DNA from: Deltaproteobacteria bacterium
GTDB lineage: Bacteria; Myxococcota; JADLHZ01
Length of the DNA: 64,000 bases
NCBI GenBank assembly: GCA_020848545.1
Contig: JADLHZ010000104.1
Span: 72,306-136,305 of the forward strand
Direction of reading: 5' to 3'
Shown here one piece after another: positions 22,970 to 23,749 of this stretch (positions are counted from its first letter, which is position 1; each line of letters begins with the position of its first letter). A program made the position numbers and the translations under genes. A model generated the notes under the pieces. It saw only the letters and a program-made list of their open reading frames with translations. It made no database searches and was not told where the DNA came from.

Positions 22970-23749
22970 TCAGCCGGCCGTTGCTTGGCCGAGCTCGTCC
23001 TTCAACAGGCGGTGCAGCTTCTCGATGACGCGGGCGTGCAGGCGGCTGGTCCAGCTCTTCGACAGGCCGAGCTTCTCGCCGACTTCCTGCAGGCTCATCT
23101 CACGGTAGTAGTACATGTCGAGCAATTGCCGCTCTTGCTCGGACAGCTTGCTCACGGCGCGATTGACGGCGATGCGCGCCTGCTCGTTGCCGATCGACTC
23201 GTCGGCTTGGACGGCGTTCTCGTCCTTCACCTGCAAGCCTTCCATGCCGTCGAGGTTGGTAATGTAGATCGCCGACATGTTCTGCAGCATCGACACGACT
23301 TGCTGCGCTTTTTCCTCTTCGGTCTTCTGCGGCGCCGCCGGATCAGCGGCGTTCTCTTCGCTGACCTGCGCGAGGTAGGCGTTCGCCTTCTCCTCGTAGC
23401 GCACGCGCGCGTACTCGCTGCGGCTCATCCAGCCCATGCCGCGCAGGCCGTCATAGATGGCGCCGCGGATGCGGTAATAGGCGAAGGTCATGAAGTTCGC
23501 GCCCATCGCCGAGTCGTAACGTTCGGCCGCTTCGAGCAAGCCGATCATGCCGTATTCGACGAGGTCTTCGAACTCGATCTCTTTGGCCAAGGTCTTTTTG
23601 ATCTTGCCGGCGATCGAGCGCACGTACGGCGTGTACTGCACGATCACGGCGTTGCGGTCTTTGAGATCGAGCTTGCGCCGCGGCTGCGGGTCGGCAGTCG
23701 TAGCAGCGGTGGCGGCGGTGGCGCGGTTCGCGCTCTGGTCAACGGTCAT
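22970..23749 (-). CDS. RNA polymerase sigma factor, FliA/WhiG (sigma-28) family
   Basis: Region 2 DLVEYGMIGLLEAAERYD and F.TFAYYRIRGAIYDGLR; region 4 HTH LSEQERQLLDMYYYREMSLQEVGEKLGLSKSWTSRLH; ATG start. Confidence 0.8.
   Translation of the reverse strand: MTVDQSANRATAATAATTADPQPRRKLDLKDRNAVIVQYTPYVRSIAGKIKKTLAKEIEFEDLVEYGMIGLLEAAERYDSAMGANFMTFAYYRIRGAIYDGLRGMGWMSRSEYARVRYEEKANAYLAQVSEENAADPAAPQKTEEEKAQQVVSMLQNMSAIYITNLDGMEGLQVKDENAVQADESIGNEQARIAVNRAVSKLSEQERQLLDMYYYREMSLQEVGEKLGLSKSWTSRLHARVIEKLHRLLKDELGQATAG

Follow-up and report, generated by a model that had tools for sequence, protein, structure and literature searches.

A FliA/WhiG-type sigma factor gene conserved within type III secretion clusters of uncultured Myxococcota, and the promoter motif that it is predicted to read

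The window analysed here is a 64-kb stretch of DNA (contig JADLHZ010000104.1) from an uncultured member of the Myxococcota, with a G+C content of about 65%, and its minus strand carries a block of type III secretion genes in which a sigma factor gene (22970-23749) is embedded. The order on this strand is an open reading frame (ORF) of 119 amino acids (aa), needle-like genes A and B, a TPR chaperone gene, an ORF of 173 aa, the sigma factor gene, and then the genes for an SctI-like protein, SctJ, a SctK-position protein, SctL, SctN, SctO and SctP. The first-pass annotation of the window had placed the sigma factor in mid-cluster, between the needle and chaperone genes and the ring and ATPase genes, and the gene order bears this out. 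The genes of the block are listed below with the evidence for each; numbers with the prefix L denote related loci, which are described further on.

26436-26795 (-): ORF of 119 aa preceding needle A, no function assigned; an ORF of 110-121 aa occupies the same position in relatives
25571-26344 (-): needle-like paralogue A, 257 aa; position, synteny and C-terminal motif
24975-25508 (-): needle-like paralogue B, 177 aa; C-terminal 70 aa the same as in A, SctF-like ending, synteny
24420-24863 (-): TPR chaperone, LcrH/SycD/CdsG-like; Pfam, NCBIfam and synteny
23782-24303 (-): small ORF, 173 aa, directly upstream of the sigma gene; candidate partner, anti-sigma factor or secreted regulator
22970-23749 (-): sigma factor, 259 aa, divergent FliA/WhiG type (group 3); Pfam, NCBIfam and PDB matches, alignment A1
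22328-22834 (-): SctI-like inner-rod protein, 168 aa; synteny, and orthologues in L038 and L039 with weak PF09392 matches
21382-22242 (-): SctJ lipoprotein ring; Pfam and NCBIfam
20303-21322 (-): SctK-position protein with weak FliG_C/FliG_M similarity; Pfam, with faint FliG matches in relatives too
19596-20303 (-): SctL/FliH-like stator; profile matches
18183-19592 (-): SctN ATPase; Pfam and TIGR02546
17614-18114 (-): SctO (YscO/FliJ-like); profile matches
16688-17617 (-): SctP/FliK-like ruler, last gene of the block; profile matches

The family of the sigma factor was assigned by ranking its profile scores against NCBIfam and the PDB. Its reading frame has the codon bias of a coding sequence (G+C at third codon positions, GC3, of 0.87), and in Pfam the protein matches Sigma70_r2 at 4.7e-14 and Sigma70_r4 at 3.1e-13. 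The top NCBIfam model is FliA/WhiG TIGR02479, with 164.6 bits and profile positions 2-223 of 224 aligned; the other scores are 156 for FliA PRK06986, 144 for WhiG, 89 for SigB/F/G and 88 for chlamydial sigma-28. Among solved structures, the protein scores 104 bits against FliA, 98 against WhiG, 91 against E. coli FliA, 82 against Aquifex FliA and about 50 against SigF-type chains. A score of 108 bits against TIGR02937 is a superfamily-level match only, as this model, named 'sigma70-ECF', is a generic sigma-70 superfamily model. The architecture is not that of the extracytoplasmic function (ECF, group-4) sigma factors, since the protein aligns over its full length with group 3 at 165 bits. The first-pass annotation had recognised a FliA-type sigma from region 2 and region 4 signatures and had named grouping with SigB/F as the result that would speak against it. 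The Pfam, NCBIfam and PDB results agree with the former, and by score ranking FliA/WhiG leads SigB/F by about 75 bits, so that the protein can be described as a divergent FliA/WhiG-type factor. Judged by these scores, it is nearer to FliA/WhiG than to SigB/F/G, RpoS, RpoH or ECF factors.

Conservation is also seen at the residues expected to read DNA. In the open complex of Pseudomonas aeruginosa sigma-28, the -10 element is GCCGATAA and the -35 element is TCTAAAG; the -10 readers are D66 and Y76 (both for the flipped -11 A), R82, and also R97 (extended -10 GC), and the -35 readers are S224 and Q228 (PMC12784957). When the sigma of the window is mapped onto this protein by alignment to solved structures, D66, Y76, R82 and R97 correspond to D79, F89, R95 and R110. 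In alignment A1 (26 orthologues), F89, R95 and R110 never vary and D79 is nearly invariant, region 2 is invariant (GANFMTFAYYRIRGAIYDGLRGMGWMSR), and region 4.2 is near-invariant (consensus LGLSKSWTSRLHARVIEKLHRLL) with an invariant recognition-helix core, LSKSWTSRLH. The two -35 readers map to S232, where the serine is kept, and to R236, which replaces Gln228; the recognition helix SESRVSQLH of P. aeruginosa sigma-28 thus corresponds to SKSWTSRLH. Retention of the -10 readers together with the change from Gln to Arg at the -35 fits an unchanged (C)CGATAA and a new -35, CAAC instead of TAAA.

The sigma factor has more than 2000 database relatives, and the best 120, which are 57-100% identical, come from Myxococcota or 'Deltaproteobacteria' metagenome-assembled genomes (MAGs). 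A locus scan of one genome per species with two family-specific peptides gave 34 loci, all of them from uncultured MAGs; no cultured genome was recovered by the peptides. By tblastn with the window proteins, the order needle-like gene, TPR chaperone, gap, sigma and sctI was found in about 32 of the 34 (sigma identity 43-84%), with a gap of 500-980 nucleotides (nt) between chaperone and sigma (486 in L028), and about a dozen of these syntenic loci run on through sctJ-K-L-N-O-P. Ten further contigs show the same order, which brings the total to about 40 loci from uncultured Myxococcota MAGs or metagenome contigs. Because the order is fixed in so many loci, the sigma factor is not a chance neighbour of the secretion genes; it is a fixed and conserved component of the cluster.

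The cluster itself is of the injectisome type. SctN scores 606 against TIGR02546, barely over the cutoff of 604.75, and the FliI models stay under their own cutoffs; members of the SctJ, SctL and YscO-like families are matched as well. Flagellar structural genes were found neither within the window nor in the flanks of the related loci (up to 10 kb per side). For the two needle-like proteins, a Pfam search at E<=10 gave no match, and the name 'needle' is therefore taken from their position and C-terminal motif.

The related loci share a recurrent promoter-like motif that consists of a T-rich tract, GCAAC(C), a spacer of 15-17 nt and (C)CGATAA. Its -10 part equals the FliA consensus, and its -35 part is CAAC(C), not TAAA. 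The form CAAC-N15/16-CCGATA occurs 32 times in these loci against about 1.0 in Markov shuffles, and a relaxed form gives 51 matches against 9 expected, 45 of them on the cluster strand. The matches cluster in two fixed positions, one before the needle gene and the other where the sigma gene ends, directly ahead of sctI; there, the stop codon of the sigma gene often lies inside the CCGATAA. The same result was obtained by an unbiased count of 6-mers. CGATAA ranks first for enrichment in the 200 nt ahead of sctI, where 20 of 39 regions have it (1.1 expected), and also in the 200 nt ahead of the needle gene, where 20 of 31 have it (0.9 expected); CCGATA and GCAACC come next. In two loci (L006 and L032), sctI is about 2 kb away from the sigma gene and the motif still sits before sctI. 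The spacers between the boxes are not conserved, which indicates that the boxes are under selection. The first-pass annotation had proposed a dedicated transcription of flagellar style. This idea stands for the -10, as FliA-type boxes (GCCGATAA) are conserved before the needle and rod genes, but not for the -35, which is CAAC(C) in this family. With -10 boxes conserved before both needle and rod genes, a dedicated regulon in the manner of sigma-28 is the best reading of the data.

Within the window, promoter-like sites were scored with a position matrix that had been trained only on loci outside the window's lineage. These sites are listed below together with other features that bear on regulation of the block.

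15842-15869 (+): GCAAC-N16-CCGATAT, 24 nt ahead of the ATG of an orphan gene; matrix score 19.7, best in the window
15894-16586 (+): orphan protein of 230 aa beside the block, no family match, box 15842-15869 upstream; candidate regulon member or substrate/effector
24371-24397 (-): GCAAC-N16-CGATAA upstream of the pair of small ORF and sigma gene; second-highest matrix score of the window, 17.0
24317-24344 (-): 28-nt element ATGACGCAGTGCGGTAAGGAAATGTAGG (ATGACGCnnnGCGGTAnGnAAATGTAGG), about 40 nt downstream of the box at 24371-24397
26367-26396 (-): TAACC-N17-GGTAGACT before needle A; conserved in the lineage, also in L035 and L036
22921-22950 (-): TAACC-N17-GGTACATT before sctI; also in L001, L035, L037 and L043, while L036 has a closely similar form (TGTA)
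26416-26442 (-): GAAA-N15-CCCGATAA, site proposed by the first-pass annotation; present, with a low matrix score and no conservation in L035 and L036
31620-33437 (-): GAF-domain sigma-54 activator, candidate input to the block; syntenic in L036

The two top matrix sites are both intergenic, correctly oriented and inside or adjoining the block. The score of the box at 15842-15869 exceeds those of all 10 shuffled windows, and the motif at 24371-24397 is present at the same place in five relatives (L036, L037, L041, L042 and L043). A canonical box at the latter position implies autoregulation of the pair formed by the small ORF and the sigma gene. The third-best match (38555-38581) lies within a phosphofructokinase-like ORF and was treated as chance, and a scan of the block with the sigma-70 consensus gave 0 sites.

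The site at 26416-26442, which had been put forward as a weak sigma-28-like promoter before needle A, did not hold up. Its -35 is non-canonical for the motif of this sigma family, its matrix score is below 12, the nearest relatives L035 and L036 do not have it, and taken alone it is not above chance. With up to 2 mismatches, the classical FliA consensus has 2 matches in the window against 0.88 expected, a count equalled in 24 of 100 shuffles, and the exact form TAAA-N14-16-GCCGATAA has no match in the window. The second classical match, GAAAT-N15-CCGATAA at 59045-59071 (-), lies antisense within the third activator gene (57189-59543 +) and was treated as chance. This second match shares a 5-mer and the spacing with the site at 26416-26442 and is probably due to chance, though it may be an antisense promoter.

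In place of CCGATAA, which the nearest relatives (L001, L035, L036, L037 and L043; 79-87% identity) do not have before needle A, the lineage of the window carries a derived box, TAACC-N17-GGTA. Its general form, TAACC-N16/17-[GC]GTA, has 9 matches in 124 kb against 0.18 expected, all on the cluster strand, and in the whole window only the sites at 26367-26396 and 22921-22950 match it. Its AACC core is that of the canonical motif, as is the distance from this core to the G of the -10, and relatives at 55-76% identity have intermediate -10 forms (GCTAATGT and GTGAATGT). With core and spacing shared and intermediates at hand, the derived box possibly belongs to the canonical promoter class and has drifted, and it is probably read by the same sigma. 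This is the least certain step of the scheme proposed here, as the derived box does not have the A expected at -11, which makes its reading by this sigma uncertain.

We consider it probable that this divergent member of the FliA/WhiG (sigma-28) family serves a non-flagellar, needle-type type III system of some uncultured Myxococcota as its dedicated transcription factor. In the proposed scheme, the sigma factor and core RNA polymerase would read (T-rich)-GCAAC(C)-N15-17-(C)CGATAA, in which a flagellar-type -10 is joined to a lineage-specific -35. In most lineages, a promoter before the needle gene would head a predicted operon of needle, chaperone, small ORF and sigma, which would produce positive feedback, and a second promoter before sctI would head the rod, ring, ATPase and export genes. 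In the window, the canonical boxes would serve autoregulation (24371-24397) and the orphan gene (15842-15869), and needle A and sctI would use the derived box, with the same -35 core and spacing.

Several points weigh against this scheme, and the alternatives draw on some of them. At needle A and sctI in the sub-lineage of the window, GGTA replaces CGATAA and puts a G at the position of the flipped -11 A, and region 2 of the sigma is unchanged. This could mean that the lineage has been rewired, in which case the sigma would only autoregulate, perhaps with control of the orphan gene in addition, and an ECF-type or other factor would drive the needle and rod genes through TAACC-N17-GGTA. Such rewiring would agree with the nearest relatives, which keep TAACC-N17-GGTA and have no CGATAA before needle A or sctI, and the changed -10 is hard to blame on a sigma whose -10-reading residues are the same as in the lineages that use CGATAA. 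In addition, ECF promoters typically have AAC in their -35, and as the -35 core of the boxes resembles this, another sigma could read them. However, the derived box has the AACC core and -10 G spacing of the canonical motif, the intermediate forms in more distant relatives suggest drift within one promoter class, and the block contains no second sigma gene. We regard rewiring as unlikely, and continue to favour one sigma that would read both forms of the box. The enrichment statistics also have to be read with care, because the related loci share ancestry and the p-values overstate their independence; in the window alone, the motif pattern is found 2 times against 0.49 expected, and 11 of 100 shuffles equal this count.

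The boxes might instead be read by some other sigma encoded elsewhere, while the embedded sigma runs an unrelated developmental or stress regulon and is merely co-located with the secretion genes. The link between protein and motif is drawn from sequence, the score of 164.6 bits misses the curated (trusted) FliA/WhiG cutoff of 189.6 for TIGR02479, and WhiG shows that the family can run non-flagellar programmes (PMC12871210). On the other hand, the -10 agrees exactly with the sigma-28 consensus and the residues by which sigma-28 reads it are conserved, the altered -35 matches the Q-to-R exchange in region 4.2, and the motif often overlaps the stop codon of the sigma gene and accompanies the cluster across about 40 loci. 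Taken together, this makes a separate reader of the boxes improbable. It is more improbable still that the gene is simply the flagellar FliA of a flagellated organism, with secretion genes as chance neighbours. Joint Genome Institute (JGI) pipelines do label relatives as 'sigma factor for flagellar operon FliA', but the gene keeps its place between the small ORF and sctI in about 40 loci, the flanks of every locus (up to 10 kb per side) are free of flagellar structural genes, SctN passes the injectisome model with the FliI models below their cutoffs, and the motifs precede needle and rod genes. The reading that we prefer is thus still that of a dedicated secretion sigma.

The small ORF directly upstream of the sigma gene deserves attention as a possible partner. 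All loci have an ORF of 95-173 aa in this position, with an N-terminal motif like M-x-[RK]-I-G-G-G-x-P and otherwise poor conservation. For the 173-aa ORF of the window, a homologue search returned only the protein itself and Pfam gave no match, and searches for FlgM or RsiG identity by Pfam at E<=10 (including PF04316), by PDB profile search and by Foldseek were all negative. The AlphaFold model of the main-group family has a mean predicted local distance difference test (pLDDT) score of 64 and begins with about 30 disordered residues, after which it is helical. Since the ORF is predicted to be co-transcribed with the sigma and autoregulated, and evolves fast, it is an obvious candidate for a partner or anti-sigma factor, and we speculate that its product is an anti-sigma or secreted partner of the sigma. 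A bolder idea is that the injectisomes of these Myxococcota kept the entire late-gene checkpoint of flagella, with the small ORF as an analogue of FlgM or as its unrecognisably diverged homologue. The small protein (disordered N-terminus with conserved MPRIGGGGGP, helical C-terminal half) would block the sigma during assembly of the basal body, and on its completion would be exported through it, freeing the sigma to turn on the needle and rod genes. We think this doubtful; if it were true, the checkpoint and the FliG-, FliK- and FliO-like genes together would represent a surviving regulatory and structural intermediate on the way from flagellum to injectisome.

Between the canonical box and the small ORF lies the 28-nt element (24317-24344), which each of the 8 loci in the sub-lineage of the window has once, always in this position, and which has no other occurrence. 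It could be an operator, an element of the 5' untranslated region or an upstream ORF of 8 codons (MTQCGKEM*). As a CAAC-type promoter it was rejected, as it has no conserved -35, and an Rfam search of 22000-27600 gave no match.

A class II-like input from sigma-54 activators to the block is possible. The three activators that the first-pass annotation had mentioned do exist in the window, at 31620-33437 (-), 55207-56526 (-) and 57189-59543 (+), and a GAF-type activator gene similar to the first of them lies near the cluster in L009, L019 and L027. No sigma-54 promoter with up to 1 mismatch was found in the block. A site with 2 mismatches (26398-26412) does not have the GC of the -12 element, and the T-rich/GCAAC region was rejected as a sigma-54 -12 element since it has no conserved -24 GG. 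The sole perfect sigma-54 consensus (TGGCACTGTGCTTGC) is at 55093-55107 (-), just downstream of the FHA-domain activator gene, and precedes an unrelated gene for a large predicted lipoprotein (52901 to about 55068) with a (GST)n repeat.

Other features of the block were also observed. The last 70 residues of needle-like proteins A and B are identical, a sign of recent duplication or gene conversion. Both proteins carry long Gly/Ala-rich N-terminal extensions, which are unusual among SctF-type subunits, and most relatives beyond the sub-lineage of the window have a single needle-like copy. SctQ, the export gate (SctRSTUV) and the secretin were not found in the window, where PutA comes after the end of SctP. 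In L038 and L039, the operon extends into SctQ, a FliO-like gene, SctR, S and T. As the block of the window stops at SctP where these relatives continue, the system is either split across the genome or incomplete here. Some traits of the otherwise injectisome-type cluster are flagellum-like, namely the FliG similarity of the SctK-position protein (20303-21322 (-) in the window) and the FliO-like gene between SctQ and SctR; the coordinates of the genes with such traits in the relatives are 19485-20234 in L038 and 18392-18952 in L039.

Many related loci (L003-L007, L011, L015-L017, L021-L023, L026, L032 and L034) have a gene for a Ser/Thr protein kinase at much the same distance from the cluster, about 4-5 kb upstream of the sigma gene, and the copy in the window lies at 34326-36080. 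This recurrent gene recalls Pkn5, the kinase of chlamydial secretion clusters. In L040, a gene of the IpgD family (PF05925, phosphoinositide phosphatase effector type) lies inside the cluster at 17225-19354, which hints that these systems act on eukaryotic cells.

Compared with the well-known FliA/FlgM system, the present sigma has several common features. By profile and structure ranking it belongs to the same subfamily, the -10 is (G)CCGATAA with conserved readers of the -10 and extended -10, and FliA likewise controls subunits of an extracellular filament that are exported by a type III machine. In contrast, the predicted targets here encode injectisome-type needle and rod proteins rather than flagellin or motor proteins; CAAC(C) takes the place of TAAA in the -35, with Q changed to R in the helix and a score below the curated cutoff; a FlgM homologue is not detectable, and the gene is embedded in a secretion operon. 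Streptomyces WhiG, which works with the anti-sigma RsiG and cyclic di-GMP (c-di-GMP), is another sigma-28 member re-used away from flagella and is the second-best match among solved structures. Its regulon, however, is one of sporulation, and by PDB profile search no RsiG-like partner was found for the sigma of the window. The chlamydial sigma-28 (RpsD, a FliA homologue) belongs to a non-flagellated bacterium with type III secretion and drives late developmental genes. It is another FliA homologue alongside type III secretion, but it is not embedded between needle and rod genes, and the protein of the window scores 88 bits against PRK05911, whose cutoff is 378.

Sigma factors inside secretion clusters are known as well. 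HrpL is an ECF sigma inside the Hrp1 clusters of Pseudomonas syringae and Erwinia and is switched on by the sigma-54 activators HrpR/HrpS. Like the present factor, it is an alternative sigma within a non-flagellar type III cluster and dedicated to it, with sigma-54 activators nearby; unlike the present factor, which is of group 3 and has no sigma-54 promoter found before it, HrpL is of group 4 (ECF) and reads the hrp box. Bordetella BtrS is an ECF sigma whose secreted anti-sigma, BtrA/BspR, couples its activity to secretion. A secretion-coupled sigma with an exported antagonist is the logic of the speculative model for the small ORF; BtrS, however, is of ECF type, and the candidate partner is unrelated in sequence. 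Within the Myxococcota, the 'Myxo' system of Cystobacterineae is needleless, with loci that have neither needle nor secretin (Abby and Rocha 2012, PMC3459982; M. xanthus T3SS*, PMC12075869). It is likewise a type III system with flagellum-like traits, but the clusters described here have needle-like and rod-like genes. Neither of these papers speaks of a sigma factor. In the papers that could be searched, we found no FliA-type sigma described for a non-flagellar secretion cluster or for Myxococcota, and none that lies fixed between needle and rod genes preceded by -10 boxes of the flagellar type.

In conclusion, the secretion-cluster sigma factors known so far (HrpL and BtrS) are of ECF type, and members of the FliA family are known to serve flagella, sporulation in Streptomyces and the late genes of chlamydiae. 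If the sigma described here is indeed the dedicated factor of its cluster, it would add a regulatory character, beside the structural ones, to the descent of injectisomes from flagella. It would also provide a natural experiment in which the -35 specificity has shifted (Q to R, TAAA to CAAC) and the -10 has been kept. In addition, it would offer a simple promoter motif by which secretion regulons and candidate effectors may be predicted in uncultured Myxococcota.

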